From: Planctomycetota bacterium
GTDB lineage: Bacteria; Planctomycetota; UBA11346
Reading direction: 5' to 3'
Assembly: GCA_038213805.1 (NCBI GenBank)
Contig: JBBQSO010000004.1
Location: forward strand, 32,001-96,000
DNA length: 64,000 bases
The notes beneath the pieces were generated by a model. The model worked only from the letters and a program-made list of their open reading frames with translations. It had not been told where the DNA came from and did not search any database. The translations under genes and the position numbers were made by a program. Positions within the stretch are counted from its first letter, which is position 1, and each line of letters begins with the position of its first letter. This document shows positions 25,681-48,067 of this stretch, one piece after another.

Positions 25681-26115
25681 TCAGCCCGGCTGGTCGATCA
25701 TCTCGATGCGGCGCTGGTGACGGCCGCCTTCGAAGGGCGTCTCGAGCCAGACGTCGACGATGGCCAGGGCGAGCTCGGTACTGACCAGGCGCGCGCCCAG
25801 GGCGATGGCGTTGGCGTCATTGTGGGCGCGGCCCAGCCTGGCGGTCTCGACATTGAAACAGTACGCGCAGCGCACCCCCGCGACGCGGTTGGCGACGATC
25901 GCCTCGCCGTTGCCGGAGCCACCCAGGACGATGGCGCGCGCGCAGCTGCCGGCGGCCACCGCCTCCGCGGCCGGGCGCATGAAGCGCGGGTAATCGCAGG
26001 GGTCGGGGGTGTCGGTGCCGAAATCGACGACCTCGTGGCCGCGCAGGCGCAGGTGGGCGGCGATCGGCCCCTTGAGCGGGAAACCGGCGTGGTCGGTGGC
26101 GAGGGCGATGCGCAT
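25681..26115 (-). CDS. rpiB: Ribose-5-phosphate isomerase B
   Basis: DHAG, DYP, GGSGNGE, HNDAN, FEGGRH. Confidence 0.93.
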
Positions 26116-26177
26116 GGTTGCAGCGTGGCGCCAGGGGCGGCTGGGCAACGGCCGTGCGCCGCGCGCCCGGTCGTGCG

Positions 26178-28133: not shown

Positions 28134-29516
28134 TCAGCCAGCGGTAGTGGACACGCTTCCGGGATGCGGCGTGCGCGGCTCGGTGCGGCCGGCCGCCAGG
28201 CACAGCCCGAGCGTGGTGCAGAACACGTAACTGGTGGCGGTGTGCCCCGCGAGGTTCTCGAATTGGCCAGCGACCAGGTAGGTGGTGATCAGCGCGGCGG
28301 CCATCGCCCAACGCTGTGGCTGGCTGCGGCGGGTGCGGAATGCGGCGAGAAGCAGCGTTGCGATCCACGCCGCATGCAGCAGCGCCGCCGGGATGCCGTG
28401 CTCTGCGGCGATCGCCAGATGACTGTTGTGGGCGTCCGGAGCCTCTTTCGCGGTGCCGCTGGCATCGTGGAGCGCGAGTTCTGGATAACGCGCGCGATAG
28501 GCGTCTTTGTAGGCCTCGGGACCGCCGGTGCCGAGCAGCGGTGCGTCCGCGATCAGGCTGGCGGTGGTCCGCCAGATCGCCAGGCGGCCGTCATCGCCGC
28601 GCGCCACCTCCAGGATGTGGACCGGGGCCAACAGCCAGGTGTAGGCGGAAAATGCCGCGACCAGGACCAGCGCGGCCGCTGACCCGATCACCAGACCGCG
28701 CCAGCCGCGGCCGGCAACCAGCCCGGCACCGACGCCCGCGGCAGCGGCCAGGAACGCGCTGCGCGCATTGGCGGCCAGCAAGCCGACACAGGCCAGCGTC
28801 AGACCGCACCAGCGGCGTACGCGGCCCGCAGCCGTATCGACCGTCGGCAGGTGCAGGAAGACCAGGGCCACCATCGCCATGGTGAAGGCCAGGGTGAGGT
28901 GCACCGGCGCGAAACCGGTGCTGTGCTGGAAGCGCTCGCCCAGTGGTGGCGCAGCGATGTGAAACGGCGGTCTGCCGCCCAACCCGATGGTGAACTGCAG
29001 CAGCGCCACCACCACCGCCGCCGCGGCGGTCGCCAGCAGCGCGCGGCAGGCCCACATGCGCACCCGCGCGTCGGCGAATCCCACCTGGGCCAGGTAGAGG
29101 GCGATCCAGCTGTCCATCATGCCGAGGCCGCCAAGCGGATGCGGATGGCGGTGCAGGGCCAGGACGGTCAGCACGCTGAACACTTGCCACGCCGCGAAGG
29201 CCGCGGCGCACCAGAAGCCCGGCAGGCGGTGCAGCGGGGGCCTGGCGAGCAGCGCACCCACCGCCGCGAGGCCATAGGCCAGGTGCATCACCGCCAAGCC
29301 CAGGCACAGCGCGGCCAGCGCCGTGGCCACGCCGATCTGCATCAGCAGCAGGCCGATGCGCCGGGGGTGGGAGGCGGGGAGGGAGGCGAGGTGGGTGAAG
29401 AAGGAGGCGAGGGGCTCACTGGCCTGGACGGACAGCGGCAATGGCGGCGCGGATGCGCTCACAGGGCGTTCGGCATGCAACACGGTGAGGGGGAAGGTGG
29501 GGCTGGCAGTGGACAT
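28134..29516 (-). CDS. O-antigen ligase/Wzy_C family membrane protein
   Basis: Many hydrophobic helices, ARSAFLA, GRLAIW...PLLGTG, DAHNSHL..AAEHGIP. Confidence 0.82.
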   Translation of the reverse strand: MSTASPTFPLTVLHAERPVSASAPPLPLSVQASEPLASFFTHLASLPASHPRRIGLLLMQIGVATALAALCLGLAVMHLAYGLAAVGALLARPPLHRLPGFWCAAAFAAWQVFSVLTVLALHRHPHPLGGLGMMDSWIALYLAQVGFADARVRMWACRALLATAAAAVVVALLQFTIGLGGRPPFHIAAPPLGERFQHSTGFAPVHLTLAFTMAMVALVFLHLPTVDTAAGRVRRWCGLTLACVGLLAANARSAFLAAAAGVGAGLVAGRGWRGLVIGSAAALVLVAAFSAYTWLLAPVHILEVARGDDGRLAIWRTTASLIADAPLLGTGGPEAYKDAYRARYPELALHDASGTAKEAPDAHNSHLAIAAEHGIPAALLHAAWIATLLLAAFRTRRSQPQRWAMAAALITTYLVAGQFENLAGHTATSYVFCTTLGLCLAAGRTEPRTPHPGSVSTTAG

Positions 29517-29694
29517 CGCAATGGTGCGCATGGCAGGACGGCATCCCGACGTCTATCCAGATGCCGGGATCTTGGGACGCGGTGCGTCAGATATAGCAGC
29601 CATCACCTCAGCGCTCCAGCGGCGGGCCGCAGGGCCGGGCGCAGACACGCCCCTCCTGCGACGCACGGCGGAGGAGGGGCCTGAATGACTTGCT

Positions 29695-31032
29695 CTAAAG
29701 CTTGAAGCCGGCGCCGGTGGAATCCTTCAGGAACCCCTTCACCGTATCCAGCGACATCTCTCCCAGCCCGCGACCCACGCCGGAGAGCTTCTTGAGCACG
29801 TCATGCGGCACGGTGATGACCCCACACCTGGTCTCTTCCGCCTGGTAGATGTTGAGCAGTTCGCGCGTACTCGCCCACAGCAGCATGGCGCTCGGCACGT
29901 CCTCAAGGATGGCGGCGCAGGCGTGCATGTAGGGGACCGGGTCGCGGCCGGTGTCGGCGATGCGGCCGGCGAAGACCGAGACCACCGAGGGCGCACCACC
30001 GCGCACGGCGTCGGCGGTCTCGACGACCTGCTTGAGGGTGAGCAGGGCGGTGACGTTGAGCTTCACGCCTTCCTTCGCCAGCTTGCGGATCAGCGGGATG
30101 CAGCTCTCGCCCTTGGTATTGGTGATCGGGATCTTGGTGTAGACGTTCTTGCCCCAGGTGGTGATCAGGCGCGCCTGGCGCTCCATGTCGACGAGGTCGT
30201 CCGAGAACACTTCGAAGGAGACCGGCTTGACCGTGATCGAGGTCAGCAGGTCTTTGGCGAAGGCCGGGTAGTCCTTGATGCCGACCTTGGCCATCAGCGA
30301 GGGGTTGGTGGTGAAGCCCTTGATCACGGGATTCTTGTCGAGCTCGAGGATGCCCGCCTTGTCGGCGCCATCGGCCCAGATCTGGACCTTGAGCTGGGTG
30401 GGGTTGATGACGAGATCGCTCATGGGATGTCCTAGGGGATGGGGCTGGTCGATGGCGTGGTGGGAGAGGATATGCCGCACAGCTTCACCAAGGTCGGCCA
30501 GCTGCAAGGTCGGGGCCGCGGTGGCCGCCTCACCATAGCCGGACCCCAGGAGGATGGTCCGGCAGCCGGCCCGGGCCCCGGCGAGGATGTCGGAGTGGCG
30601 GTCGCCAACCATCCAGCTGCGCGCCAGGTCGAGGCCGCGGCGGCGGGCCGCGTCCAGCAACATCCCGGGGTTGGGCTTGCGATCCGGGTGGTCGCCGTCC
30701 GCGTAGCATACCACCACCTCGTCCACCGGCAGACTGGCGGCGAGATGCGCATTGATCGCCTCGACGCGTTCGCGGGTCTGGGTGCCGCGCACCACGTCGG
30801 GCTGGTTGGTCACCACCACCAGTTCGAAGCCCGCGGCCTTGAGCCGACCCAGCTGCAGGGCGGTGCCGGCGGGGATCTCGACCGCGGCGACGTCGCAGGG
30901 CGGGTAGGGTCGGCCGCCGCGCAGGACTGCGCGGTTGAGCACGCCGTCGCGATCGAGGAAGACCGCGTGCCCACGGTGGCCCTGGCCAGCTCCCGCCTGC
31001 GGGCCGCCGGCCACTAGGGAACCGATTCCCAC
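29695..31032 (-). CDS. In-frame GmhB-like HAD sugar-bisphosphate phosphatase plus transaldolase (transaldolase part 29695-30423)
   Basis: FLDRDGVLN, VTNQ, RKPNPGM, VGDR.SD, then ADGAD, GFTTNPSL, SFEV, YTKIP, NVT, SVFAGR; no stop between the two domains. Confidence 0.85.
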   Translation of the reverse strand: MGIGSLVAGGPQAGAGQGHRGHAVFLDRDGVLNRAVLRGGRPYPPCDVAAVEIPAGTALQLGRLKAAGFELVVVTNQPDVVRGTQTRERVEAINAHLAASLPVDEVVVCYADGDHPDRKPNPGMLLDAARRRGLDLARSWMVGDRHSDILAGARAGCRTILLGSGYGEAATAAPTLQLADLGEAVRHILSHHAIDQPHPLGHPMSDLVINPTQLKVQIWADGADKAGILELDKNPVIKGFTTNPSLMAKVGIKDYPAFAKDLLTSITVKPVSFEVFSDDLVDMERQARLITTWGKNVYTKIPITNTKGESCIPLIRKLAKEGVKLNVTALLTLKQVVETADAVRGGAPSVVSVFAGRIADTGRDPVPYMHACAAILEDVPSAMLLWASTRELLNIYQAEETRCGVITVPHDVLKKLSGVGRGLGEMSLDTVKGFLKDSTGAGFKL

Positions 31033-31610
31033 ATGGTGCGGCTGGCCTTGAGCGCCGGGTGCGACACCAACAGGTGCCAGATCACCCCTTGGAAGGCTTC
31101 GGCATGCGGGGTGATGTGCTCGGAGTTGAGGGTGGGGATGATGATCGCGGCGTCGGCGACGGTGGCGGTGAAGCCGCCGTCCCGGCCGACGATGCCAAGG
31201 ATGGTGGCCTTGACCTCCCGGGCATGCTGCACTGCAGCGACCAGATTCGGACTGATGTTTCTCGCCACGTCTCCGCCGCCGACCGAGAGCACCAGGATGC
31301 CGTCCTGGGCGTTCAGCCGGCTGACCTTGAGCCAGCCGACGAACACCGAGGCCCAGCCGTCGTCGTTGGTGCGCGCAGTCAGCTCCGACACGTTGTCGGT
31401 GGGCGCATAGGCCTCGAGCCCGGCGATCTTGCGGAAGTCGTTGACCGCGTGCGAGGCGTTGCCGGCGCTGCCGCCCACGCCCAGGATGAACAGACGACCG
31501 CCGCGGGCACGGATCGCGGCGAGGAGCAACGCGGCGCGCTCGATCACCGCCACGTCGAGCGCGGCGATGATCTGGGTCGCCTCGGCGAGGAAACGCGCGG
31601 CGAAGGTCAT
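31014..31610 (-). CDS. SIS-domain phosphosugar isomerase, GmhA-like
   Basis: GVGGSAGNASH, LTARTNDDG, LSVGGG, SPN, GRDGG. Confidence 0.88.
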   Translation of the reverse strand: MTFAARFLAEATQIIAALDVAVIERAALLLAAIRARGGRLFILGVGGSAGNASHAVNDFRKIAGLEAYAPTDNVSELTARTNDDGWASVFVGWLKVSRLNAQDGILVLSVGGGDVARNISPNLVAAVQHAREVKATILGIVGRDGGFTATVADAAIIIPTLNSEHITPHAEAFQGVIWHLLVSHPALKASRTMWESVP

Positions 31611-32338
31611 GGGTGGCGTCCTGGTGTGCCGGGGGCAGTGGCGAGCATCCGGGTGAGGTCGGCGATGCCAGCGAAGGAGCCGATCTCGTGGAAGCGCTCG
31701 GCGACCTCGAAGCCGGCGAGGTCGTCCGCCGCCAGGCGCTCGCGGTAGAGTGTGGCGAGGTCGGCGGGCTGGCCTTCCGGCAGCGCCGCGAAGGCGCTGC
31801 GCCGGAAGAGCCCGAGTCCGTAATCGATGTGCTGCATCACCGGTGTCTGGACCTGCTTGTCGTAGACGCGGATGCGGCCGGCGGCGAACTCGACATTGCT
31901 GCGGTCGTATTGGCCGTGGTTCCGGTAGACGGTCATCAGTGCGGACTTTTCGCAGGTGCTGAAGGCATCCTGGACCGCGGCGTGGTCGCAGGTCAGGTAG
32001 GAATCGCCGTAGAGCGTGAAGAAGTTTTCGCCGAGCTGCGGCAGCGCGCTCCGGATGGCGCCGGCGGTGCCGAGCAGGGTCGGGCCATCGAAGACGAAGT
32101 CGACGTGGATGCCGAAGGCCGCGCCGTCGCCGACGACGTCGCGGATCTGTTCACCGAGGAAGCCGGCGCAGATCACCACCCGGCGGACGCCCTGGCGGCG
32201 CAGCAACCGCAGCTGATGGGCGATGAAGGGCTCGCCGCCGATGTCGATCAGCGCCTTGGGGATCTTCTCGGTCACCGGCCGCAGCCGGGTGGCGAGGCCC
32301 CCGGCCAGGATGACCACCGGGAATAGCTCGCGGCTCAT
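31607..32338 (-). CDS. Sugar-1-phosphate nucleotidyltransferase, HddC-like
   Basis: ILAGGLATRL, PKAL, LGTAGA, YGDSY, EIGS. Confidence 0.9.
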   Translation of the reverse strand: MSRELFPVVILAGGLATRLRPVTEKIPKALIDIGGEPFIAHQLRLLRRQGVRRVVICAGFLGEQIRDVVGDGAAFGIHVDFVFDGPTLLGTAGAIRSALPQLGENFFTLYGDSYLTCDHAAVQDAFSTCEKSALMTVYRNHGQYDRSNVEFAAGRIRVYDKQVQTPVMQHIDYGLGLFRRSAFAALPEGQPADLATLYRERLAADDLAGFEVAERFHEIGSFAGIADLTRMLATAPGTPGRHP

Positions 32339-33318
32339 GCGTGCACCAGCACCTTGGTGCCCTCGAAATCGAAGCGGAAGCGGACCTCGACCAAGCCGGC
32401 CTCGCGCATCGCCTTGCGCAGCGACGCCTTGTCTTCCGCGTAGAACATCAGGAAGCCGCCGCCGCCCGCGCCGATCAGCTTGCCGCCCAGGGCGCCGTGG
32501 GTGCGGGCGAGCGCGTACCAGTCGTCGATGCGGTCATTCGACATCCTGCCGCTGCGCTGCTTCTTGGTCTCCCAGTGCACGTTCATCAGCTCGGCGAAGC
32601 GGTGCAGGTTGCCCTGCTCCAGCGCGGCTTTGCTGTCCAGGCCGAGTTGCTTCACGTTGTGCAGGTTTGCGGTCATCTCCGTATCGCCGTGCGCGCTCTT
32701 GTCGTCCTGCTCCTTGAGCACCGCCGAAGCGGAGCGCGAATAGCCGGTGAAGAACAGTAGCAGATTGTCCTCGAGCTGGTGCAGAGTGTCGGCGCCGACC
32801 GCCAGCGGTGCCGCCTCGACCGTGCCGTCCGGATGGAAGTGGAAGCAGGTCAGCCCACCGTAGGCAGCGATGTACTGGTCCTGTTTGCCGATCGGTTCCT
32901 TCAGCAGGTCCATCTCGATGTGGCAGGCCTGCTCGGCGAGGTCGCGCGGGTGGATGAAGTCCTTCTTCAGGCTGTGCAGGCCCTTGAGCAGCGCGGTGGT
33001 GAAGCTGCCCGACGATCCCAGCCCAGTGCCGGCGGGGATGTCCGCCATGCTCGAGATCTCAAGGTAGTGGCCGTTGATGCCGGTCAGACGCATCGCCTCG
33101 CGGATGATCGGGTGCTGCAGCTCGGCGGCAGACGCCACGCGCTCCATCTTCGAGTACTTGACGATCAGGTCCGGGACGAAGGTCTGGTGGAAGGTGATGT
33201 AGACGTACTTGTCGATCGCGCCGGCGATCAGGAAGCCGCCGTGATCGCGGTAATACGACGGCAGGTCGGTGCCGCCGCCGCCAAGGGAGATGCGCAGTGG
33301 GCTGCGGGTGATGATCAT
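32335..33318 (-). CDS. GHMP-family sugar-phosphate kinase, HddA-like
   Basis: PLRISLGGGGTD, PAGTGLGSS, GKQDQY, GAGGGGF. Confidence 0.92.
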   Translation of the reverse strand: MIITRSPLRISLGGGGTDLPSYYRDHGGFLIAGAIDKYVYITFHQTFVPDLIVKYSKMERVASAAELQHPIIREAMRLTGINGHYLEISSMADIPAGTGLGSSGSFTTALLKGLHSLKKDFIHPRDLAEQACHIEMDLLKEPIGKQDQYIAAYGGLTCFHFHPDGTVEAAPLAVGADTLHQLEDNLLLFFTGYSRSASAVLKEQDDKSAHGDTEMTANLHNVKQLGLDSKAALEQGNLHRFAELMNVHWETKKQRSGRMSNDRIDDWYALARTHGALGGKLIGAGGGGFLMFYAEDKASLRKAMREAGLVEVRFRFDFEGTKVLVHA

Positions 33319-34310
33319 CGCGAGAGCTCGTAGATGCGTGCGACGATGGTGAGGGCCGCCTGGGCGTCGCGCAGGCCAGGGCGGGGCTCGCGGCCGAGGC
33401 GGATGTCGTCGAGGAAGTCCGCGAACTCGAGCGCCCACGAACGGTCGCCGCGCGGATATTCCCAGGCCTGGGTGTCGGGTGGCCCCATCTCGGGCAGCAT
33501 GCGGTACCAGGTCAGGCGCTCGACGCCGTAGCTGCCGCCCAGGCCTGTGATGTCGAGCTTGCCGGTGCGGCCGTAGAGTTCGAACGAGAACAGGTTCTTC
33601 CACTCGCTGCAGCTGGCGTGCAGGGATGCGGTCTGGCCGCGCGCGGTGCGCAGCAGCAGGAAGGCATTGTCGTCGACGGGCATGTCCCAGTAGCAGGTCT
33701 GGGCGTGGCCCTGCACCGAGGTGAACTCCTCGCCGAGCAGCAGGCGCGCGAGGTCGATGAGATGCACGCCCTGGTCGATGAGTTCGCCGCCGCCGGACAG
33801 CGCGGGATCGGCGCGCCATTCCTTCTCGTAGCCGAGGCGGCCGCCGTGGCCATAGCGGGCGCGGCAGAACATCAGTTCGCCGAGCGCGCCGGCAGCGACG
33901 AGTTCCTGGGCCTTGAGCAGCGCCGGGTGGTAGCGGTGGTTGAAGCCCACGCGTACGCGCGCACCGGTGCGCGCGGCGGCCGCGATCACCGGGTCGAGTT
34001 CGGCGGCGCGGCGCGCGCCCGGTTTCTCGATCAGGACGTGCAGCCCGCGCTCGGCGGCGGCGAGCGCGACCACCGGCAGCTGGTCATGGGTGGTCGAGAC
34101 CAGGGCGATGCCGACCCCGGGCCGCGCGATGGCGGCGCGCCAGTCGGTGTGTGTGGTCGCGCCCGGTGCGGTAGCGGCCAGCGCGATGGCGCGCTCGACA
34201 ACCGTGTCGGCGCAGGCGATCAGCTGGCCCGGCGCCAGCAGCTTCGCGCGCTTGGCGCCGATCATTCCACAGCCGACTATGGCGACGCCCAGGTGGTTCG
34301 GATCAGGCAT
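33315..34310 (-). CDS. Gfo/Idh/MocA oxidoreductase
   Basis: IVGCGMIG, HVLIEKP, GFNHRY, GGGELIDQGVHLID. Confidence 0.9.
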   Translation of the reverse strand: MPDPNHLGVAIVGCGMIGAKRAKLLAPGQLIACADTVVERAIALAATAPGATTHTDWRAAIARPGVGIALVSTTHDQLPVVALAAAERGLHVLIEKPGARRAAELDPVIAAAARTGARVRVGFNHRYHPALLKAQELVAAGALGELMFCRARYGHGGRLGYEKEWRADPALSGGGELIDQGVHLIDLARLLLGEEFTSVQGHAQTCYWDMPVDDNAFLLLRTARGQTASLHASCSEWKNLFSFELYGRTGKLDITGLGGSYGVERLTWYRMLPEMGPPDTQAWEYPRGDRSWALEFADFLDDIRLGREPRPGLRDAQAALTIVARIYELSR

Positions 34311-35178
34311 CCCAGTCCTTCCCACGGTCCTTGGCGACGATGCGCCGCAAGGTGTAGATGTCGCTACCGGCCAATTCGCCGGCGCGCTCCGGCAGGCGCT
34401 GCCAGTGGTCCCACACCGCGCTCAGCAGGCGGCCGGTGATGCCGTCGCTGGCCGCGCTGGCGAGGAACTCGGCGAGCTCCGCGCCCTTCTCGGGCGGCGT
34501 GCCGCCGGCGGCCTGCTGCTTGCGGGCACGCTCGTGGAAGCCAGCGCTGACCTTGGCCGGGCCGGCGGCGAGCACCTCGTCGAGCATGCGGGTGTTGAGT
34601 GCGCCCGGGGCGATGGCGTTGACGTCGACGCGCGCCGCCTTGAGTTCCTCGGCGAGGGTCTCGGTGAGTCGCACCACCGCCGCCTTGGAGGCGGCATAGG
34701 CGCTGATGAAGGGCAGCGGCGCGGTCGCCCCGCCGCCCGAGAGGTTGATGATCTTGCCGTAGCCGGCGGTGCGCAGCAGCGGGATCGCCGCCTGGCACAT
34801 CGACATCACGCCGAAGAGGTTGATGGCGACCGCTTCGCGCCAGGCCGCGCCGTCGACCTCCTCCAGCGCGCCCATCGGGCCGTAGACGCCGGCGTTGTTG
34901 ACCAGCGCGGTGAGCCTGCCGAATTCGCGCTGCGCGCGCGCCACCGCGGCGCGGCACTGCGCATCGACGGCGACGTCGCAGGGCATCGCCACGACGCGCT
35001 GGCCGGGGGCGGTGGCACTCGCCGTGAGCCGCTGCGCGACCTCGTGCAGCAAGGCCTCGCCGCGCGCGACGATGAGCACGCTGGCGCCGGCCGCGACGAA
35101 GCGTTCGGCGATGGCGCGACCGAGGCCCTGGTTGGCGCCGGTGATGAGGGCGGTGCGTCCGCTGAGCGGCAGGTTCAT
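34303..35178 (-). CDS. Short-chain dehydrogenase/reductase
   Basis: TGANQGLG, NNAG, YAASK, VNAIAPG. Confidence 0.92.
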   Translation of the reverse strand: MNLPLSGRTALITGANQGLGRAIAERFVAAGASVLIVARGEALLHEVAQRLTASATAPGQRVVAMPCDVAVDAQCRAAVARAQREFGRLTALVNNAGVYGPMGALEEVDGAAWREAVAINLFGVMSMCQAAIPLLRTAGYGKIINLSGGGATAPLPFISAYAASKAAVVRLTETLAEELKAARVDVNAIAPGALNTRMLDEVLAAGPAKVSAGFHERARKQQAAGGTPPEKGAELAEFLASAASDGITGRLLSAVWDHWQRLPERAGELAGSDIYTLRRIVAKDRGKDWDA

Positions 35179-36533
35179 GGTGCGGTGGCCGAGGCGGGAT
35201 GGGCGGGCGGCTGGCCGGTGGCGGCAGGCCGTCCGGTGGCGACGTAGAGGATGCCCGGCGCGCTGGCCAGGCCGGCGGCGAGGAACCAGTTGGGATCGAT
35301 GACGCGCGCGTGGCGCATGCCCGCGCTGAAGTCGCCGGCGGCGAGGCGCCGGAAGTCCGGCCACTCGGTCGCGACCACCGCGGCGTGCGCCCCGGCGAGC
35401 GCGCCGGCGGCGCTGGCGTGCAGGCGGATGACGCCGACCAGTTCCGCGGGCAGAGCCGGCACCGCGGGATCGTGGGCCTGGACCGTGATACCGCGCGCGT
35501 GCATCCAGCGGCACAGCTCCACCGCCGCCGAGCGGCGCAGGGTGTCGGTGCCGGGCTTGTAGGTCAGGCCGAGGACCGCGACCACCGGGCGCTCCACCCC
35601 GGTGGTGAGCAGTGCGACCTTGTCGCGCAGCCAGGCCTTGTGCAGGTCGTTGCTGGCGAGCACGCCGTCGACCAGCGGGGTGCCCAGTCCATGGTCCCGA
35701 CCAAAGGCCTGCAGGAAGCGCAGGTCGCGCGCCAGGGTGCCGCCGGCGAAGGCGCTGCCGGGCGACAGGTAGGCCTTCTCGCCGATGCGGCCTTCGCTCT
35801 TCAGGCCGCGTTCGACCTCGCGCGCATCCGCGCCAACCGCCTCGCAGATGCGCGCGAGTTCATTGGCGAAGGTCACCGACAGGCCGAGGAAGGCGTTGAT
35901 CGCGTGCTTGGTCATCTCCGCGGATTCGAGCGACATCCACTCGATGCGCGTGCTGAACGGCGTCATCAGGTCCGCCAGGATCGGGCGCGCTGTTTCGTTG
36001 TCGGTGCCCAGCACGATGCGCTCCGGGGCATTGAAGCAGGCGATGGCCTTGCCCAGGCGCAGGTTCTCGGGCGAATAGGCGACCTGGAGGCCCAGTCCCG
36101 CCCAGTCCCGGGCCAGCGCGCGCGTGAAGCCGACGGGTACCTGCGAGGTGATCAGCACCACCGTGCCTGGGCGCAGGTGCGGGCGCAGTGTTTCGAGTCG
36201 GGCGCGCACGAAGGGCACGTCGGCCTCATCGCGCTCGTCGACCGGGGTGTCGCAGGCCACCACCAGCACGGCCGCCTTGGCGAGCGCGGCGGCGGGGTCC
36301 GTGGTGAAGGCGATGCGGCCCGCCGCGAGGCTGTCCGCCAGGCTCTGGTCCAGCCCGGGCTCGGCGATCGGCGCCCGGCCGGCGGCGAGATCCGCCACGG
36401 TCGCGCCCTCGGGATCGAGGCCGACCACCTGGTGGCCGGCGGCGGCGAGGCAGGCGGCGGTGACGCAGCCGAGGTGCCAGAGGCCGAAGACCGTGACCTG
36501 CCGGGGCATGGCGGCGACGGGTGCCGTGCTCAT
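35175..36533 (-). CDS. UDP-glucose/GDP-mannose dehydrogenase-family protein lacking the catalytic Cys
   Basis: GLWHLG, CDTP, SPENLR, AEMTKHAINAFL, LGLTYKPGTD; PGSAFAGGTLARD where the family has PGxGFGGSCLPKD. Confidence 0.85.
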   Translation of the reverse strand: MSTAPVAAMPRQVTVFGLWHLGCVTAACLAAAGHQVVGLDPEGATVADLAAGRAPIAEPGLDQSLADSLAAGRIAFTTDPAAALAKAAVLVVACDTPVDERDEADVPFVRARLETLRPHLRPGTVVLITSQVPVGFTRALARDWAGLGLQVAYSPENLRLGKAIACFNAPERIVLGTDNETARPILADLMTPFSTRIEWMSLESAEMTKHAINAFLGLSVTFANELARICEAVGADAREVERGLKSEGRIGEKAYLSPGSAFAGGTLARDLRFLQAFGRDHGLGTPLVDGVLASNDLHKAWLRDKVALLTTGVERPVVAVLGLTYKPGTDTLRRSAAVELCRWMHARGITVQAHDPAVPALPAELVGVIRLHASAAGALAGAHAAVVATEWPDFRRLAAGDFSAGMRHARVIDPNWFLAAGLASAPGILYVATGRPAATGQPPAHPASATAP

Positions 36534-36901
36534 GGCGCGGTTTCCGGACGGCCGAGCGCCATCAGCACCACGCCCACCGCGATCACCGCCATTCCTGCGA
36601 TCAGCATGGGATTGAGGCGTTCGCCGAGCAGCAGTGTGCCGATCACGGCCGAGATGACGAAGTGCAGCGACATCGCGAAGGGCACCAGGAAGATCAGGCG
36701 TTCGCGCCCGACCAGCACGATGAGCACCAGGAAGGACAGCCCGTACAGACCGACGCCGAGCCAGAAGAACGGCTCTGTAAGCAGTTCCCGGGCGCGGTCG
36801 AGTGACGCCGCCGGCGCGGCGCGCTTGAGGAAGTACATCCCGGTGTTGGCGAGCAGCGCCTGGACCACGACCAGGATGCCGGACAGCGCGAGCCCGCTCA
36901 T
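36530..36901 (-). CDS. Small four-helix SMR/EamA-like membrane protein (ArnE/F-like flippase candidate)
   Basis: 123 aa, four hydrophobic segments, LLGERL...G...I..GV ending. Confidence 0.72.
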   Translation of the reverse strand: MSGLALSGILVVVQALLANTGMYFLKRAAPAASLDRARELLTEPFFWLGVGLYGLSFLVLIVLVGRERLIFLVPFAMSLHFVISAVIGTLLLGERLNPMLIAGMAVIAVGVVLMALGRPETAP

Positions 36902-37854
36902 GCGCGTGCCGCGAGAACCCAGTCCTCGCGCTGGAGGTAGGCGACGGTGCGCTCGACGGCCGCGCGGATGGTCAGCTTTGGCTGCCAGCCGAGCGCGCGG
37001 ATGCGCGTGGTGTCGAGGAAGATGAAGGGGTTGTCGCCGATCCAGCCGCGGTCACCGCCGCAGTAGTCGAGACGGGGTTTCACGCCCAAGGCGTCGCAGA
37101 TCCAACCAATCGAGTCGTTCACCTGGCAGTAGTGGTCGGTGCCGAGGTTGAAGAGGTTGACCTTGCCGTCGGCCTTGGCCATGGCGAAGAGCATCGCGTC
37201 GAGGCAGTCGCCGATGTAGAGGTAGCTTTTGCGCTGGCGGCCGTCACCCAGCACCGGCAGGCGCGTGGGGTCCTGCCCGAGCTTCTTCATGAAGTCGAAG
37301 ATGTGGCCGTGGGTGTAGCGTTCGCCGAGGATCGAGACGAAGCGGAAGATCCAGCTCTGGAAGCCGAAGCCCTCGCAGTAGGCGGCGATCAGGCCCTCGC
37401 CGGCGAGCTTCGAGGCGCCATAGAGCGACGTCTGCACCGGGAACGGTCCGTCCTCGGGCGTGGGGATGACCGTGGCTTCGCCATAGACCGACCCGGTCGA
37501 CGAGAAGGCGATCTTGCGCACCCCGCCCGCCCGCATCGCCTCAAGCACGTTCCAGGTGGCGATGGTGTTCTGCTCGAGGTCGCGGCGCGGGTGGTCGGTG
37601 CCGAAGCGCACGTCGGCGTTGGCCGCGAGGTGCATGACCGCGTCGCAGCCGGCGACCGCGGCGTCAAGGGCCGGGCGGTCAAGCAGATCCCCGCGCACCA
37701 GCCGGAATCGGGGATCGGCGAGCGCACCGGCGAGGAAGCGCTCCTGCCCGGTCGAGAAGTTGTCGTAGCCCACGACCTCGTGCCCGTCCGCCAGCAGGCG
37801 GTCGGTGAGCGAAGAGCCGATGAAGCCGGCCGCGCCGGTGATCAGGTAGCGCAT
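36898..37854 (-). CDS. NAD-dependent nucleotide-sugar epimerase
   Basis: TGAAGFIGS, HLAA, SSTGSVYG, YGASK. Confidence 0.9.
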   Translation of the reverse strand: MRYLITGAAGFIGSSLTDRLLADGHEVVGYDNFSTGQERFLAGALADPRFRLVRGDLLDRPALDAAVAGCDAVMHLAANADVRFGTDHPRRDLEQNTIATWNVLEAMRAGGVRKIAFSSTGSVYGEATVIPTPEDGPFPVQTSLYGASKLAGEGLIAAYCEGFGFQSWIFRFVSILGERYTHGHIFDFMKKLGQDPTRLPVLGDGRQRKSYLYIGDCLDAMLFAMAKADGKVNLFNLGTDHYCQVNDSIGWICDALGVKPRLDYCGGDRGWIGDNPFIFLDTTRIRALGWQPKLTIRAAVERTVAYLQREDWVLAARA

Positions 37855-38840
37855 GCGGCTTCCGGGGTGCGGGCGGCAGGCGCCAGGGGCGGGTGCTGGG
37901 GGAAGCCGAGGGCCTCTTCGACGATGAACAGCGGGCGCTGCTTGGTCTCGTCGTAGATGCGGCCGATGTACGCGCCAAGCACGCCCATGCCGATGAGCTG
38001 CATGCCGCCCATGAACAGCACCAGGATCATCAGGCTGGGCACGCCCGAGGCGAACTGCCAGTTCGTGCCGAGCTTCATGTAGGCGATCACCAGCGCGCTG
38101 ACCATCGCCAGGGCGGCGCAGGCCAAGCCGACCTTGATCATGAAGTTGAGCAGGTAATCGGAAAAACAGATAATGCCGTTGAAACCGATGCGCAGCGAAC
38201 CGGTGATGCGGTTGTACTTGCCCTCGCCGCCGGCGCGCGCCTCGCGGTCGAAGGGCAGCAGCACGGTTTTGAAGCCGACCACCGCGACCAGCCCGCGCAA
38301 GAAGCCGTGGCCTTCCTTGAGCTTCTTCAGCTCGTCGACCACCGCGCGGTCCATCAGGCGGAAATCGCCGGTGTTGCGCGGGATGCGCACGTTGCTGATC
38401 TTGTTGATGAACCAGTAGCCGAGGTACGAGATCAACCGCTTGAGCGGATGCTCGCCATCGCGCGAACGACGCTGCGGCACCACCACCTTCCAGCCGCTGC
38501 GCCACTGGCGCACCATCTCGCCGATCAGCGCCGGTGGATCCTGCAGGTCGCAGTCGATGATCACCACCGCAGCGCCCGCGGCGTGGTGGATGCCGCCCAT
38601 GGTCGCCGCGGGCTGGCCGAAGCGCCTGGAGAACGCCAGCAGCTTGATGCGCGGGTCGGCGGCGTGCGCCTCGCCGATCAGCGCCAGGGTGCGGTCACGG
38701 CAGGGGTCGGCGCAGAAGATGATCTCGTAGTCCTCCGTCACCTCCGCCAGCGCGGCGCGCATCGCGGTCATGAACGTGGGCAGGGTCTGCTCCTCGTTGT
38801 ATACCGGGACCACGATTGAGAGCAGGGGGATGGCGGTCAC
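37842..38840 (-). CDS. GT2 polyprenyl-phosphate glycosyltransferase (GtrB/ArnC-like)
   Basis: VVPVYNEE, FSRRFGQ, DCDLQDPP, GDFRLMDR, two C-terminal TM helices, YIGRIY.E.KQRP. Confidence 0.9.
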   Translation of the reverse strand: MTAIPLLSIVVPVYNEEQTLPTFMTAMRAALAEVTEDYEIIFCADPCRDRTLALIGEAHAADPRIKLLAFSRRFGQPAATMGGIHHAAGAAVVIIDCDLQDPPALIGEMVRQWRSGWKVVVPQRRSRDGEHPLKRLISYLGYWFINKISNVRIPRNTGDFRLMDRAVVDELKKLKEGHGFLRGLVAVVGFKTVLLPFDREARAGGEGKYNRITGSLRIGFNGIICFSDYLLNFMIKVGLACAALAMVSALVIAYMKLGTNWQFASGVPSLMILVLFMGGMQLIGMGVLGAYIGRIYDETKQRPLFIVEEALGFPQHPPLAPAARTPEAACAT

Positions 38841-39565
38841 GGAATCCCCGGCTTCGGCTGCAGGGTGAGCCCGATGACCAGGTTGGCCGTGACCACGGGC
38901 ACCTTCAGGGGGAAGAAGCTGCGGTGGCGGATGATGAAGCGCTGTTCGAGCTCGCCGATGATCTCATGCGGCCGGTTGATGTGCTCCACCGCGACGAACC
39001 AGTCGTAGCTCTGCCCATAGCGTTTCTCGAACATCGGCCGCGCGGAGAAGTTTCGCGCCAGGGTGTAGGCCAGGCCGCCTTCGCACGGGATGACCACCGA
39101 GAAGCGGCCATCGGGCTTGAGCAGGCGGTGGACCTCGGCGATGGCGCGCGGCAGGTCGGGCAGGTGCTCAAGCACGTGGATGGCGAGCACGCGGTCGAAG
39201 AACCCGTCCGCGAAGTCGAGGCGCTGCTGGCAGTCGCCGACCGCGGCCCGCACGCCTGGGTGCTGGTGGACAAGGATTTCGGCCAGCTCGGCGCGCAATT
39301 CGTTGACGTAGTATTCCTGGTCGGCGAGGTTCTCGTGGGCGAGGTGTGCGCCGATGCCGGCACCGATCTCCAGGGTCCGGCCACCGCTGACCCGTGAACG
39401 CAGCGGATAGCCATGATTGAAGCGCTCGATCATCCCGTACTTGGTGGGCAGGGTCCTCAACCATTCGCGCATGAAGTCGTCGCGGATGCGCTGCTGCTCA
39501 GCGGTCAGGCTGGGCAGGCGCTTCGGCCATTTGCCGGCGCCATGGCGTGGGGGCGCATCGATCAT
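38837..39565 (-). CDS. Class I SAM-dependent methyltransferase
   Basis: LEIGAGIG, FDRVLAIHVLEHL, LLKPDG. Confidence 0.88.
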   Translation of the reverse strand: MIDAPPRHGAGKWPKRLPSLTAEQQRIRDDFMREWLRTLPTKYGMIERFNHGYPLRSRVSGGRTLEIGAGIGAHLAHENLADQEYYVNELRAELAEILVHQHPGVRAAVGDCQQRLDFADGFFDRVLAIHVLEHLPDLPRAIAEVHRLLKPDGRFSVVIPCEGGLAYTLARNFSARPMFEKRYGQSYDWFVAVEHINRPHEIIGELEQRFIIRHRSFFPLKVPVVTANLVIGLTLQPKPGIP

Positions 39566-46072: not shown

Positions 46073-47059
46073 TCAGGTCTTTGCGCGCTCGGGGCGCAGG
46101 CGGAGGAAACTGTTCAGCGGCAGGGAGGGCATGCCCGCCACATCCTGCTGGAAGAAGGCCAGCAGGCTCTGGAAGCCGATGATCAACGGCAACGCCGCGA
46201 GCATGACCGTTCCAGCGGAGGCAGTTGTGAGCATGGACAGGCCTCTGACCCAGTGCCAACTGCCGAAGGTGATCCCGAAGGTGAGGGCGGCCAAGGCAGT
46301 CAGAAGGTGCATACTGCCGATGTTGAAATCCCTCAGAAAATAGCGGTACCCAATGCGTTTCCCAAAATTCCTGAAATGCTTGACCGAGAATTCGAACAAC
46401 ACCTTGCCCACGCGCAGACTGCTCTTCTCGCCAGCATATACCGCCTGCATGGGCAGGTCGACGACGACCGCGCGGGCGATGCCGAGGCGGAAGAGCATGT
46501 CTGATTCGAAGAAGTAGCGGTCGGCGATCTTGGCGAGTGGGAGCTCTTCGAGCGCAGCGCGGTGGATGGCGGTGTAGCCGTTGGTCGGGTCAACGATGCT
46601 GTAGTATCCTGACGACAGCTTAGTGATGAAGGAGAGGGCGGCATTGCCGATCAGCCGAACGAGAGGCATCGAAGATGCATCCTCAAGATTGTGGAAGCGG
46701 TTGCCTTTGACGTAATCAGCCACGCCATTGACGATCGGGGTGCAGAACCTGAGAGCTAGGCGAGGATCCATCTGCCCATCGCCATCGACCTTGACCATGA
46801 TGTGGGCACCAGCGGCGAGCGCCGCCTCGTATCCTGACTTCACCGCCCCTCCCACCCCACGGTTCCGCACATGGCGGACGAGACGGAGTCGCGGGTCTGT
46901 GCAAGAAGCGGCGATGAAATCGCCGCTCTGCTCGGGACAGAGGTCGTCAACGCAGATCACCAGGTCGACTTCGGGCGGTATCGCGGCGAGGACGCCGAGG
47001 ACCTTGTCGCGGACCCTGTAGCAGGGGATGACTGTGGCGATGACGTGGTCGTTGATCAT
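46073..47059 (-). CDS. GT2 polyprenyl-phosphate glycosyltransferase (DPM-synthase-like, C-terminal TM helices)
   Basis: VIPCY, VDD.CP, N.GVGGA, KVDGDGQMDP, KGNRF, DPTNG, FESD. Confidence 0.88.
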   Translation of the reverse strand: MINDHVIATVIPCYRVRDKVLGVLAAIPPEVDLVICVDDLCPEQSGDFIAASCTDPRLRLVRHVRNRGVGGAVKSGYEAALAAGAHIMVKVDGDGQMDPRLALRFCTPIVNGVADYVKGNRFHNLEDASSMPLVRLIGNAALSFITKLSSGYYSIVDPTNGYTAIHRAALEELPLAKIADRYFFESDMLFRLGIARAVVVDLPMQAVYAGEKSSLRVGKVLFEFSVKHFRNFGKRIGYRYFLRDFNIGSMHLLTALAALTFGITFGSWHWVRGLSMLTTASAGTVMLAALPLIIGFQSLLAFFQQDVAGMPSLPLNSFLRLRPERAKT

Positions 47060-47200
47060 GTTTTCTGCTATCTTCGCACGGTGGCTCGATGACGAGGAGA
47101 TCGGAACGTCGGAACCGGAGGCAAATGGTGCGCGGAGGCTCCGCTACGGGGGTCGGGAGGCTACGCCTCGCCATCCCCTCTGCGGGATCGTGCCGCCCGC

Positions 47201-48067
47201 TCACTGGCAGCCAGCCGGCGATTGGGCCTGTTCGGCCAATTCGCGCAATGATGGTGCCGGGATTCCCAGGCGATGCAGGTCCGATGCTCTCGATCGTCCG
47301 GCGTTGAATCGGTACGCCCTCATGCTGTCGCTGTCGATCGGCAGGCGGATTCCCAGGTGAGCGGCGAGCTGCGTCGCGCAGGTGGCCAACCCGATCGGCA
47401 CTGGGACCAGATGCCGCCGCAGGCCTCGGGCGCGGGCGATCTCCTGCAGGATCTCGGCTAGGGTGGGCTGCTCGTCATGGAACAGATTCCAGTCCCCGCG
47501 CGTGCCATCGCCGATGAGGCGCGCGATGGCCTCGCTCAGCCCGCCGATCCCGATCACCGGTACTCGATGCCGACCCCCATCCGGTACTGGCAGGCAGCGG
47601 TGAGCCGCCACCATCGCGGTCATGCGCGCGAAAATGCCGCCTGGTCCCGCGACCAGGCCAGGGCGGACAATGCAGATGTCCGGTCCTGCGAGGCGTGTTT
47701 CCAGCTGTGCCTTCAGCCGGCCGTAGCCGGATGGGGAATCCTCCCAGGCGGAATAGGAGCTGAGAAGAATCTGTCCTGGGATGCCGGCGACGCGGGCGGC
47801 CCTGGCAATCGCGACGGTTCCATCAAGGTTTCGCTCCTCGGCATGCGGGCCCGCGTCAAAGGCGCAGTGCACCACCATGTCGATCCCGGCGAGCATCCCC
47901 GGCAGCAGACCGCGCTGGTCGAGGTCCAAGGCCATCGACGGCGCCCCAGCCCCAGTCGCGCTCCCGGCTTTGCGCGAGGAGCCGGTAATGGTGTGGCCGT
48001 GGGTCGCAAGACAGCGCGCGAGCGACCCGCCGATCAATCCAGTGATTCCGGTGATGAAGATGTTCAT
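47201..48067 (-). CDS. NAD-dependent epimerase/dehydratase (atypical SDR)
   Basis: TGITGLIG, SS.SA, YGRLK, VRPGLV.GPGG. Confidence 0.8.
   Translation of the reverse strand: MNIFITGITGLIGGSLARCLATHGHTITGSSRKAGSATGAGAPSMALDLDQRGLLPGMLAGIDMVVHCAFDAGPHAEERNLDGTVAIARAARVAGIPGQILLSSYSAWEDSPSGYGRLKAQLETRLAGPDICIVRPGLVAGPGGIFARMTAMVAAHRCLPVPDGGRHRVPVIGIGGLSEAIARLIGDGTRGDWNLFHDEQPTLAEILQEIARARGLRRHLVPVPIGLATCATQLAAHLGIRLPIDSDSMRAYRFNAGRSRASDLHRLGIPAPSLRELAEQAQSPAGCQ

Follow-up and report, generated by a model that had tools for sequence, protein, structure and literature searches.

A Planctomycetota operon encoding relatives of lincosamide sugar enzymes and a GtrB/ArnC-type glycosyltransferase

Gene content of the operon and its candidate lipid-carrier proteins

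Positions 29695–39565 on the reverse strand of the window (the whole 64,000 nt stretch of Planctomycetota DNA analysed here) carry eleven overlapping genes, A to K, that form one operon. With the starts chosen in this analysis all ten gene junctions (10/10) overlap, seven by 4 nt and three by 13–23 nt. This agrees with the single operon described in the first-pass annotation, and all gene families named there were recovered by Pfam and NCBIfam at the same positions. All genes described below lie on this strand.

A (38837–39565, ATG at 39565) encodes a class I SAM methyltransferase of 242 aa (Pfam Methyltransf_11, E 6e-15), presumed to O-methylate the sugar. It is followed by B (37842–38840, 332 aa), a polyisoprenyl-phosphate glycosyltransferase, and by C (36898–37854, 318 aa), a protein of the extended-SDR NDP-sugar epimerase/dehydratase family (Pfam Epimerase, E 7e-50). 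D (36530–36901, 123 aa) is a small membrane protein with four predicted transmembrane segments and distant likeness to DMT/SMR proteins, E (35175–36533) has the fold of UDP-glucose dehydrogenases (UDPG/MGDP-dehydrogenase family), F (34303–35178, 291 aa) is a classical SDR (Pfam adh_short, E 3e-54), and G (33315–34325, 336 aa) was assigned by Pfam to the Gfo/Idh/MocA oxidoreductases. The early-sugar enzymes comprise H (32335–33318, 327 aa), a GHMP sugar-phosphate kinase resembling HddA and LmbP, I (31607–32338, 243 aa), a sugar-1-phosphate nucleotidyltransferase (Pfam NTP_transferase), and J (31014–31610, 198 aa), a SIS-domain ketose-phosphate isomerase. K (29695–31032, 445 aa) combines a GmhB-like HAD-IIIA phosphatase domain (about 30424–31032) with a TIGR02134-type transaldolase domain (29695–30423); because it is one open frame, it represents a fusion and not two genes. 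As the annotation had stated, Pfam and NCBIfam detect no aminotransferase among the eleven genes, and F is a presumed ketoreductase in the place that the aminotransferase has in lincosamide clusters.

A gene for a Wzy_C-family membrane protein (O-antigen ligase/polymerase-like; 28134–29531, Pfam Wzy_C, E 4e-16) follows K in the same orientation after 163 nt and is a possible tail of the operon. Such a gene was found near none of 80 cassette loci, and in G799, a genome of the same genus, no Wzy_C match lies between the transaldolase gene and a GDSL gene, which are 69 nt apart. The surroundings in the window are those of a polysaccharide locus (RfbB, RmlD, RmlA, WecB, Wzy_C, several GT2/GT4 and a PMT-like GT-C), and no NRPS, PKS or aglycone genes were found in this neighbourhood.

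B was confirmed as a bona fide enzyme of the GtrB/ArnC type. It consists of a GT2 domain and two C-terminal transmembrane helices (hydrophobic segments 234–252 and 270–288), and it aligns with GtrB (PDB 5EKP, 235 bits) over residues 7–314 including the C-terminal transmembrane hairpin, compared to 127 bits for ArnC and 51 bits for DPMS. Its NCBIfam scores (PgfS 241 bits, ArnC 147 bits) are both under the cut-offs, which argues for a different donor sugar. In contrast to the known systems, the operon encodes no GT-C transferase, and the neighbourhoods of the cassette in other genomes showed none that recurs.

The proposal that D acts as a flippase was not borne out. D has four hydrophobic segments and is, with about 120 aa and four transmembrane segments, built like ArnE and ArnF; weak paralogues of D adjoin ArnC-like GT2 genes both in relatives and, within this genome, on contig C34. 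However, its matches are weak (NCBIfam ArnE, E 1e-5, 25.7 bits versus a cut-off of 92; Pfam TMEM234, E 2e-4), and unlike the small-protein flippases GtrA and ArnE/ArnF it has no adjacent partner subunit. None of the 80 other cassette loci contains D (0/80), and a search of 5.8 billion proteins returned just two further protein clusters. In G806, of the same genus, it is found at the same place with 98% identity, and in G799 it is broken. D is a genus-restricted insertion, and its role as a candidate flippase subunit is therefore just an analogy.

Kinship to lincosamide-type blocks of actinomycetes

For comparison we used lincosamide-type (celesticetin-like) blocks with the gene order K-L-M-N-Z-P-O-S-R from six of 401 large actinomycete genomes; they were typed by gene order and content alone, none of their proteins being named Lmb or Ccb. 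The blocks of G742 and G607 add C-, D-, E-, F-, IH/Q-, T- and V-like genes (Lmb/Ccb letters) and salicylate genes, a make-up that matches the table of the celesticetin cluster in PMC4351081. The Z proteins of these two blocks carry a weak C-terminal carrier domain. In lincosamide biosynthesis the route through GDP-octose to GDP-lincosamide is assigned to LmbR/CcbR, LmbN, LmbP, LmbK, LmbO, LmbM, LmbL, LmbZ/CcbZ and LmbS (PMC4351081, Table 2; PMC12945683). Eight of these nine protein families are common to the operon, which has the SDR in place of the aminotransferase. Gene order differs, identities to the block proteins are just 26–44%, and the context of an NRPS/mycothiol system contrasts with a polysaccharide locus with a polyprenyl-phosphate glycosyltransferase.

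E is a Cys-less dehydrogenase, as had been noted before. It shares the three-domain fold of UDP-glucose 6-dehydrogenase (Ugd/UGDH; 216 bits to PDB 4A7P), but has Thr in the column of the catalytic Cys and Ala-Arg instead of the following Pro-Lys (AGGTLARD versus GGSCFPKD in solved enzymes), and the GxGxxG motif is replaced by G-L-W-H-L-G. The Thr is invariant in 24/24 aligned homologues. UDP-glucose dehydrogenases oxidise their substrate by four electrons to a uronic acid through a thioester on the catalytic Cys, and since this Cys is lost, E cannot form such a thioester. E and the L-type proteins have two derived motifs in common, one in the NAD loop (WHL) and one at the site of the missing cysteine (TLxRD), and they share the Cys-to-Thr and Lys-to-Arg exchanges. 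When an L-type protein was used as query, all of its 119 best matches carried the Thr, 17 of them with exactly FAGGTLARD. In the tree E and the L-type proteins form one Thr-type clade apart from the canonical Cys enzymes (SH-aLRT 99). E is placed in a sister subclade to the L-type proteins and not within them, and its substrate may therefore differ. We regard E, judged by its sequence, as the likely counterpart of the L-type "C8 dehydrogenase".

The other tailoring proteins gave a similar picture, in trees that contain few outgroups for the epimerase and Gfo families. C groups with five M-type proteins and one long-branch intruder, and not with its six own paralogues (SH-aLRT 97), which suggests that it is the counterpart of the M-type epimerase. 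G is sister to five Z-type proteins (SH-aLRT 90), and when the library was searched with a Z-type protein, 98 of the 150 best representatives shared 40% identity or more with a G protein of the cassette. It may thus be the counterpart of the Z-type protein, though this grouping is less firm than those of the isomerase, the UGDH-like protein and the epimerase, which stand on starred branches. The expected affinity of the dehydrogenase and the Gfo protein to LmbL and LmbZ was thus recovered with lincosamide-type blocks as reference.

J belongs to the N type and not to the GmhA type. It carries GVGGSAGNASH, a departure from GmhA pointed out by the first-pass annotation, while a second, GmhA-like gene of the genome has literally GNGGSAADAQH. 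Its score with the gmhA HMM is 51 bits (cut-off 209), similar to that of an N-type protein (54 bits). In the SIS tree 29 cassette and six N-type proteins are split with support 100/97 from a group that contains E. coli GmhA, the GmhA-like gene of the genome itself and two heptose-type proteins; these two are the isomerases found in actinomycete blocks with a heptose-type kinase. A transaldolase accompanies the N-type isomerase in 6/6 actinomycete blocks, and in 0/5 blocks with a heptose-type kinase (20 kb fetched). In the operon, too, a transaldolase travels with the gene set.

The trees of the kinase (with P-type and heptose-type kinases) and of the HAD phosphatase gave no resolved placement, so that tree building supported kinship to the lincosamide-type proteins for E, G, C and J, but not for these two. 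H reaches 149 bits with NCBIfam HddA (cut-off 600) and matches solved heptose kinases (3K85 158 bits, WcbL 150, 4N3O 123). Its identity is 37–39% to actinomycete heptose-type kinases versus 27–32% to P-type proteins. NCBIfam scores of I are 121 bits for MurU, 89 for ManC and 66 for HddC (cut-off 300), all under the cut-offs, and the GmhB HMMs likewise stay under the cut-off with the HAD domain of K. The operon thus shares four enzyme families and their logic (isomerase, anomeric kinase, phosphatase, nucleotidyltransferase) with the GDP-D-glycero-alpha-D-manno-heptose pathway (GmhA, HddA, GmhB, HddC), but all four miss the equivalog cut-offs, and a transaldolase and four tailoring oxidoreductases are added. 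A complete ADP-heptose operon (HldD, GmhB, GmhA, HldE and a heptosyltransferase-like gene) is located on another contig, and the cell can therefore be supplied with ordinary heptose independently of the operon studied here.

The transaldolase domain of K scores 306 bits with TIGR02134, above the cut-off of 282, while the R-type transaldolase is FSA-like and reaches 78 bits. The two belong to different subfamilies and were therefore recruited separately. The transaldolase had been called dedicated, but it is not an extra copy: K is the sole TAL_FSA match in the assembly (90% complete), and it may for that reason simply perform the housekeeping reaction. The operon carriers of the genus (G000, G806 and G799, where the operon is decayed) have this transaldolase type only; the other seven genomes each have another type.

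Conservation of the cassette

We surveyed the conservation of the neighbourhood, as the annotation had proposed, in a collection with one genome per species. The core, consisting of C and E-F-G-H-I-J-HAD-transaldolase, is a syntenic cassette present in many bacterial phyla and some archaea, with at least 582 stretches confirmed by tblastn and the order C-E-F-G-H-I-J-HAD-Tal maintained across phyla. Genes downstream of E were counted in 52 loci with enough flank, and 30 of these contain all seven. E is accompanied most constantly by F (51/52), followed by G (43/52), H (41/52), HAD (38/52), I (37/52) and Tal (32/52). HAD-Tal fusions of the same size occur in two of the 35 loci holding both. Upstream genes were counted in 61 loci with at least 4 kb before E: C is present in 54, a GT2-type gene in 34, a B-like GT2 (at least 40% identity) in 17, and a methyltransferase-type gene in 26, eight of them GT2-fused.

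Eleven loci contain C-E-F alone or accompanied by GT2 and methyltransferase genes, with none of the genes from H to Tal within 7.5–10 kb. Of five genomes tested in which the early genes are missing from the E locus, four had a cassette-type H (67–70% identity) elsewhere, in one case on the same contig as the E locus.

Proposed pathway and alternative readings

The chemical steps that follow are our inference, and so are the number of carbons, the nucleotide and acceptor used, and any part played by D. The transaldolase of K would lengthen an aldose phosphate by a unit of three carbons, and the resulting ketose phosphate would most likely be octulose 8-phosphate made from ribose 5-phosphate. 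J would convert it to the aldose, H would phosphorylate C1, the HAD domain of K would remove the terminal phosphate, and I would form the NDP-sugar. C and the pair E/G could then bring about side-chain epimerisation and oxidation/dehydration to a keto-deoxy intermediate, comparable to LmbM, LmbL and CcbZ. F would reduce the ketone, which an aminotransferase aminates in the antibiotic pathway, to give an NDP-deoxy-octose for methylation by A. B would transfer the methylated sugar to polyprenyl phosphate, the lipid-linked sugar would cross the membrane, possibly with the help of D, and a putative periplasmic transferase would add it to a surface glycan.

It is possible, though we regard it as doubtful, that the cassette instead makes a modified heptose, with the transaldolase producing sedoheptulose 7-phosphate, J, H, K and I converting it to NDP-glycero-manno-heptose, and C, E, F and G tailoring this sugar before it is lipid-linked. 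Products of the tailoring could be, e.g., keto, deoxy or epimeric heptoses. The preference of H for heptose kinases, both among solved structures and in actinomycetes, agrees with this, as do the best NCBIfam names of every early enzyme, which are heptose-pathway names, the housekeeping-type family of the sole transaldolase, and the 20/52 cassettes without a nearby Tal. These names are, however, carried by scores far from the cut-offs, J is split from the GmhA proteins of E. coli and of the genome itself, a full ADP-heptose operon is already present, and the enzymes to which E, G and C are related remodel an octose at its three-carbon side chain. We know of no heptose pathway that uses a Thr-type UGDH-like protein.

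The C-E-F loci and the tight E-F pair could also mean that two unrelated modules adjoin, A to F processing a hexose-derived NDP-sugar for the lipid carrier and G to K making ordinary heptose for another glycan. We consider this improbable given the H genes located elsewhere in such genomes, the gene order kept across phyla, the overlap of every junction in the window, and the joint occurrence of the same families in lincosamide-type blocks. Least probable of all is that the operon belongs to a secondary-metabolite (antibiotic-like) cluster and not to envelope biogenesis: the closest characterised analogues are antibiotic pathways and the actinomycete blocks are located in lincosamide-like and ansamycin-like clusters, but the polysaccharide surroundings free of NRPS, PKS and aglycone genes, the polyprenyl-phosphate type of the partner GT2, and the spread over many phyla and archaea all speak against it.

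The envelope octose or heptose reading of the first-pass annotation was upheld for the kinship of E, G, C and J and for the type of B, but not for a dedicated transaldolase, a flippase or GDP, nor for eight carbons, H scoring higher against solved heptose kinases than against the P type. No paper describing the cassette was found in the literature. Its core, which is uncharacterised, occurs in a wide range of uncultured microbes. Judged from sequence comparison, the product of the operon would be an unusual activated sugar of seven or more likely eight carbons, probably passed on to a lipid carrier in the membrane and destined for the cell surface. With a probability of about one half, the operon would represent a variant, used for the cell envelope, of the part of lincosamide biosynthesis that makes the sugar.

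Gene content and surroundings of the operon

Eleven genes (A to K) follow one another in the same direction along the minus strand of the window, from position 39565 to 29695; the window has a G+C content of about 68%. Based on Pfam and NCBIfam assignments they encode a methyltransferase (A), a GT2 protein (B), an NAD-dependent epimerase (C), a membrane protein of 123 aa (D), a member of the UDP-glucose/GDP-mannose-dehydrogenase family (E), a classical SDR (F), a Gfo/Idh/MocA protein (G), a GHMP kinase (H), a nucleotidyltransferase (I), a SIS isomerase (J) and, in one 445-aa frame, a GmhB-like HAD phosphatase followed by a transaldolase (K). With the starts chosen here the genes overlap at 10/10 junctions, seven times by 4 nt and three times by 13–23 nt, and a promoter and terminator consensus scan gave nothing above shuffles. 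The operon is located inside a 35-kb polysaccharide locus that also comprises a Wzy_C-family gene, RfbB, RmlD, RmlA, WecB, several glycosyltransferases and a PMT-like GT-C protein.

A gene for ribose-5-phosphate isomerase B (LacAB_rpiB, E 3e-52; 25681–26148, minus strand) is found 3.5 kb past the operon end. The acceptor of LmbR is ribose 5-phosphate; the adjacency of rpiB to the operon may be due to chance. A further lipid-carrier module, more complete than that of the operon, occupies 46073–54039 (minus strand). It consists of a GT2 gene with weak matches to PpgS, AglJ and dolichyl-P-hexose transferases, an SDR, a 582-aa protein (FAD-binding at its start, GMC-like at its end), a 138-aa ORF, a 153-aa ArnE/ArnF-like EamA protein (41–44 bits), a methyltransferase and an 896-aa PMT-like GT-C protein (51349–54039), the GT-C candidate of the window that is nearest to the operon. 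Its FAD enzyme and SDR presumably resemble the logic of DprE1/DprE2, in which a lipid-linked sugar is oxidised and then reduced. Still further along, a 1774-aa multi-domain protein with methyltransferase, GT2 and GT4 domains is encoded at 58448–63772 (minus strand), followed by a 639-aa GT4-GT2 protein (56578–58497). Both are typical of polymerising O-antigen-type synthases.

Relationship to lincosamide-type sugar genes

The first-pass annotation had compared the operon with the lincosamide sugar pathway, which involves 6-epimerisation, 6,8-dehydration, 4-epimerisation and 6-transamination. Table 2 of PMC4351081 gives the order lmbK (C8 phosphatase), lmbL (dehydrogenase), lmbM (epimerase), lmbN (isomerase) and lmbZ (oxidoreductase), followed by lmbP (kinase), lmbO (guanylyltransferase), lmbS (aminotransferase) and lmbR (transaldolase), and a review (PMC12945683) assigns the conversion of GDP-octose to GDP-lincosamide to LmbM, LmbL, CcbZ and CcbS. 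Comparator proteins, designated K-, L-, M-type and so on after their Lmb/Ccb counterparts, were taken from 401 actinomycete genomes of 7–12 Mb, a genus sample centred on a 9.5-Mb genome. With an E profile of the cassette (the operon core C-E-F-G-H-I-J-HAD-Tal that recurs in other genomes), the twelve best matches in these 401 genomes were all ordinary Cys enzymes. Kinase H matched 14/401 genomes, and L-type proteins were reached through the kinase alone. Six of these genomes harbour a block HAD/UGDH-like/epimerase/SIS/Gfo/GHMP/nucleotidyltransferase/DegT aminotransferase/transaldolase, which is the order from lmbK to lmbR.

Type-1 blocks, all with the same gene order, are present in G399, G778, G583 and G518 (4/401 genomes). 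In G399, the one of the four whose surroundings were examined, the block (L125:12627–20000 and L126:1–19970), with a DegT aminotransferase and a GT1, adjoins a modular PKS and AHBA genes (class II DAHP synthase, DHQ-synthase-like, RifK/L/M/N-like) together with an arylamine N-acetyltransferase-type amide synthase. This looks like an ansamycin-like cluster, not a lincosamide one, and may carry a lincosamine-type sugar; because of its AHBA/PKS surroundings the G399 block was dropped as a lincosamide comparator, and the label "lincosamide-type" therefore rests on G742 and G607. There, the block is surrounded by genes for an adenylation enzyme, a 359–389-aa protein, a PIG-L amidase, a class I/II PLP enzyme, PmbA/TldD, a GT1, a mycothiol-isomerase-family protein, a chorismate-binding enzyme and a second adenylate ligase, and the Gfo protein of G607 has a weak carrier-protein match at its C-terminus. 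G742 and G607 were taken as lincosamide-type comparators since this gene make-up fits the celesticetin cluster as presented in PMC4351081. All comparators were recognised from gene order and content; no protein bore an Lmb or Ccb name, and no such name occurred among the listed hits of an L-type query or among the cluster members of ten of them.

The expectation that the operon holds all families of the Lmb route except the aminotransferase, with an SDR instead, was borne out: eight of the nine families were found, and F stands in the aminotransferase's place. Pfam and NCBIfam revealed no DegT-type aminotransferase in the operon, while one is present in the comparator blocks. Identities to the block proteins amount to 39–44% for C, 36–43% for both the HAD part of K and G, 34–39% for E, 30–36% for J, 27–34% for I, 27–32% for H and 26–30% for the transaldolase.

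E had been described as a Cys-less dehydrogenase, and this is right. Unlike UDP-glucose/GDP-mannose 6-dehydrogenases, E lacks the catalytic cysteine; aligned with solved UDP-glucose dehydrogenases, it has Thr in the column of their catalytic Cys, and this Thr is invariant in 24/24 aligned homologues. The lost-Cys site and the NAD loop read FAGGTLARD and GLWHLG in E, FSGSTLQRD and GLWHLG in the L-type proteins of G742/G607, and YAGATLHRD and GDWHLA in that of G399, versus WGGSCLPKD and GTGYVG in canonical UGDH. As judged from these alignments, the lost-Cys site and the WHL loop are two derived motifs uniting E with the L-type proteins. In a quick tree of UGDH-like proteins all Thr-type proteins (21 from cassettes, six L-type, five further actinomycete and eight environmental ones) were split from six Cys enzymes and two paralogues of the same genome with an SH-aLRT of 99, and within this clade the cassette proteins (95) and the group containing the L-type proteins (100) formed sister subclades. 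Among the matches listed for an L-type query against 5.8 billion proteins, Thr was present at this column in 119/119 and the exact cassette motif in 17/119.

Similar groupings were obtained for other proteins. A careful SIS tree placed 29 cassette and six N-type isomerases on one side of a branch with support 100/97, and E. coli GmhA, the genome's second GmhA-like gene and two actinomycete heptose-type isomerases on the other, in agreement with the view that J departs from GmhA. In a quick tree that also held seven paralogues of the same genome and a RifL-like protein, 17 cassette Gfo proteins joined five Z-type proteins at SH-aLRT 90; this branch carries no star and the outgroups are few. The Gfo grouping is backed by a library search that agrees with it: among the 150 best matches of a Z-type query in 1.84 billion cluster representatives, 98 shared 40% identity or more with a cassette G, and 21 shared 50% or more. 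A quick epimerase tree with few outgroups united 16 cassette and five M-type proteins, together with one long-branch intruder, at SH-aLRT 97. The HAD and GHMP trees gave no resolved placement with K- or P-type proteins. The proposed kinship of the dehydrogenase with LmbL (SH-aLRT 99) and of the Gfo protein with LmbZ (SH-aLRT 90, from a quick tree with few outgroups) is thus supported through comparators identified by gene order and content. We conclude that the operon is real and encodes a lincosamide-type higher-sugar pathway in a new, uncharacterised form, coupled to a lipid-carrier step of the GtrB type. In the mostly open-access literature searched, no paper describing such a cassette in the biosynthesis of surface glycans was found.

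Spread of the cassette and a probable lipid-carrier step

Relatives of E with 61–68% identity are very numerous in Planctomycetota, Chloroflexota and other phyla, and are usually annotated in public databases as "UDPglucose 6-dehydrogenase". A search with two E-family motifs in one genome per species gave at least 599 stretches. By tblastn, at least 582 of them could be confirmed, and the 80 best ones were analysed as loci; one carrier of the cassette is a cultured Gemmata strain (L046). Among these best 80, the order C-E-F-G-H-I-J-HAD-Tal recurs in Chloroflexota, Acidobacteriota, Verrucomicrobiota and Planctomycetota, and also in Actinomycetota, Nitrospirota, Rokubacteria, Pseudomonadota and archaea. 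In the 52 loci that extend 7.5 kb or more beyond E, F was present in 51, G in 43, H in 41, I in 37, J and HAD in 38 each, and Tal in 32; all seven downstream genes were present in 30/52. C was found in 54 of the 61 loci that start 4 kb or more ahead of E. Five genomes with E loci devoid of H-to-Tal were inspected for H: in 4/5 a 67–70% identical H is located elsewhere, and the fifth gave a 24% match only. The cassette halves remain linked even where they are not adjacent. HAD and Tal are normally separate adjacent genes; a single-frame fusion of the same size occurs in 2/35 loci with both (L032, L024), and four further loci were flagged as fusions through over-long frames only.

In the window's own lineage an E-type gene was detected in just 2/41 genomes, namely the window's genome (G000) and, among 40 relatives, G806. 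Because of this patchy distribution lateral acquisition of the cassette is suggested. In G799, a relative of the same genus, the operon (L166:9600–17481) looks decayed: C, D, F, H and J each match in two frames, and the interval from D to F contains no E; G (76%), the transaldolase (73%) and a GDSL gene (81%) are intact. This MAG is 62% complete, and an assembly error is possible.

B shows the GT2 domain and the C-terminal TM hairpin (hydrophobic segments 234–252 and 270–288) of polyisoprenyl-phosphate glycosyltransferases such as GtrB, ArnC and DPMS, with a full-length match. Against solved structures it reached 235 bits with GtrB (residues 7–314 of 332), 127 bits with ArnC and 51 bits with DPMS, but it stays below the equivalog cut-offs of the specific enzymes PgfS (241 vs 500) and ArnC (147 vs 529). 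GT2-type genes are positioned directly upstream of the cassette in 34/61 loci (17 B-like, eight methyltransferase-GT2 fusions and nine short GT2), and methyltransferase-type genes upstream of it in 26/61. Since B fits GtrB and GT2 genes recur upstream of the cassette, we infer on good grounds that the product would be transferred to polyprenyl phosphate. At L067:6553–8142 and in seven other loci, the gene immediately ahead of the cassette epimerase encodes a single protein of about 546 aa in which a Zn-ribbon-like start, a methyltransferase and a GT2 domain are fused. A gene that is more ArnC-like than B (367 bits) is present on contig C34 of the same genome (G000:C34:22300–26000; L155:2375–6014) in an Arn-like operon, next to ArnA-formyltransferase-like and ArnB-like genes.

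For the proposal that D is a flippase the evidence is much weaker. D matches the ArnE/ArnF small flippase subunits in size (123 aa; range 110–130) and in its four hydrophobic segments, but misses the ArnE cut-off (25.7 bits vs 92, E 1e-5), and the operon contains no second small membrane gene that could serve as ArnE/ArnF partner subunit. None of the cassette loci (0/80) has a copy of D. It also matches TMEM234 (E 2e-4), and a search of a large protein database gave only two further protein clusters. In the same-genus genome G806, D (98% identity) is likewise situated between C and E; in G799 it is broken. Weak D paralogues adjoin ArnC-like GT2 genes in relatives and on C34, where the paralogue lies within the N-terminal part of the ArnB-like frame; this setting would be compatible with a carrier-lipid role for D. 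When the neighbourhoods of the cassette loci were searched, neither a GT-C, Wzy or EamA gene nor any other gene of the window recurred there.

The transaldolase and the number of carbons

The transaldolase of K (residues 213–444) belongs to the Staphylococcus-type family TIGR02134, with 306.4 bits compared to an equivalog cut-off of 281.95. The R-type transaldolases are FSA-like (TIGR02134 78 bits, FSA-type 88 bits) and differ from it, with 27–29% pairwise identity and 68–84 bits, which falls short of orthology. The transaldolase of K is the sole TAL_FSA match in its own 90%-complete genome; some transaldolase was found in 33/41 genomes (40 relatives and the own genome). Within the genus (relatives G797–G806), the operon carriers G000, G806 and G799 (decayed in the last) show the cassette TIGR02134-type alone, and each of the other seven has another type. 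The latter is a 411-aa protein in G803 (L162:7640–8875), the one genome read, and three others give a match of about 240 bits. The two types are complementary in distribution, a pattern seen among kin and thus non-independent, with two of the three operon genomes only 62–68% complete. Considering this distribution and the single TAL_FSA in the genome, the cassette transaldolase may also, or solely, perform the housekeeping reaction. Frames of about 420 aa in relatives had been considered as HAD-Tal fusions and were discarded, as that of G803 is the different 411-aa type; neither the HAD nor the transaldolase of the window matched in the four transaldolase loci fetched from relatives.

If homology of the cassette to the lincosamide set is granted, we estimate a probability of roughly 55–60% for an eight-carbon product. 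This is favoured because the related proteins are the isomerase and the three enzymes that remodel the octose side chain in lincosamide biosynthesis. In the actinomycete sample a transaldolase accompanies 6/6 blocks with an N-type isomerase and 0/5 blocks with a heptose-type kinase (20 kb fetched each), and the two of the latter in which an isomerase was found have one that groups with E. coli GmhA in the SIS tree; this pattern was also counted in favour of eight carbons. So was the complete ADP-L-glycero-D-manno-heptose operon elsewhere in the genome (G000:C3:68900–74800; L154:4910–10833), which encodes HldD (377 bits, cut-off 274.6), GmhB, GmhA and HldE (477 bits). Together with a divergent heptosyltransferase-like gene, this operon indicates that the organism has heptose-containing LPS.

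The alternative is a seven-carbon product, as in the GDP-glycero-manno-heptose pathway. H reached 150–158 bits on solved heptose kinases and is 37–39% identical to actinomycete heptose-type kinases versus 27–32% to P-type proteins; its kinase match was counted against eight carbons or as neutral, and so were the TIGR02134 membership of the transaldolase, its status as the sole TAL_FSA match and its distribution in the genus. All tested proteins miss the NCBIfam equivalog cut-offs of the heptose pathway, however: H that of HddA (149 vs 600), J that of gmhA (51 vs 209), I that of HddC (66 vs 300) and the HAD part of K those of alpha-GmhB (40 vs 250) and beta-GmhB (79 vs 178). With the gmhA model an N-type protein scored 54 bits, close to J, and the genome's second GmhA-like gene 158 bits, a comparison that was likewise counted in favour of eight carbons; the GmhA of the heptose pathway stands apart from J across the 100/97 branch.

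On a broader reading of an eight-carbon product, to which we give somewhat less than even odds, the cassette would represent a primary-metabolic pathway occurring widely in cell envelopes, in Planctomycetota, Verrucomicrobiota, Acidobacteriota and Chloroflexota as well as in other phyla and some archaea. It would yield an NDP-deoxy-octose, often methylated and passed on via polyprenyl phosphate. The sugar genes of lincosamides (and of the ansamycin-like cluster) would have branched off from it into secondary metabolism, with an aminotransferase taking over from the ketoreductase.

Even if the product is a heptose, the tailoring chemistry of E, F and G and its link to a GtrB-type lipid-carrier step are uncharacterised. 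Should it prove to be an octose, neutral sugars with eight carbons would cease to be an oddity of one antibiotic family and become a common surface building block in phyla whose glycans are almost unstudied. The cassette would then indicate from where the lincosamide sugar pathway evolved, and would give a function to a large branch of Cys-less UDP-glucose dehydrogenases that are publicly labelled "UDP-glucose 6-dehydrogenase".
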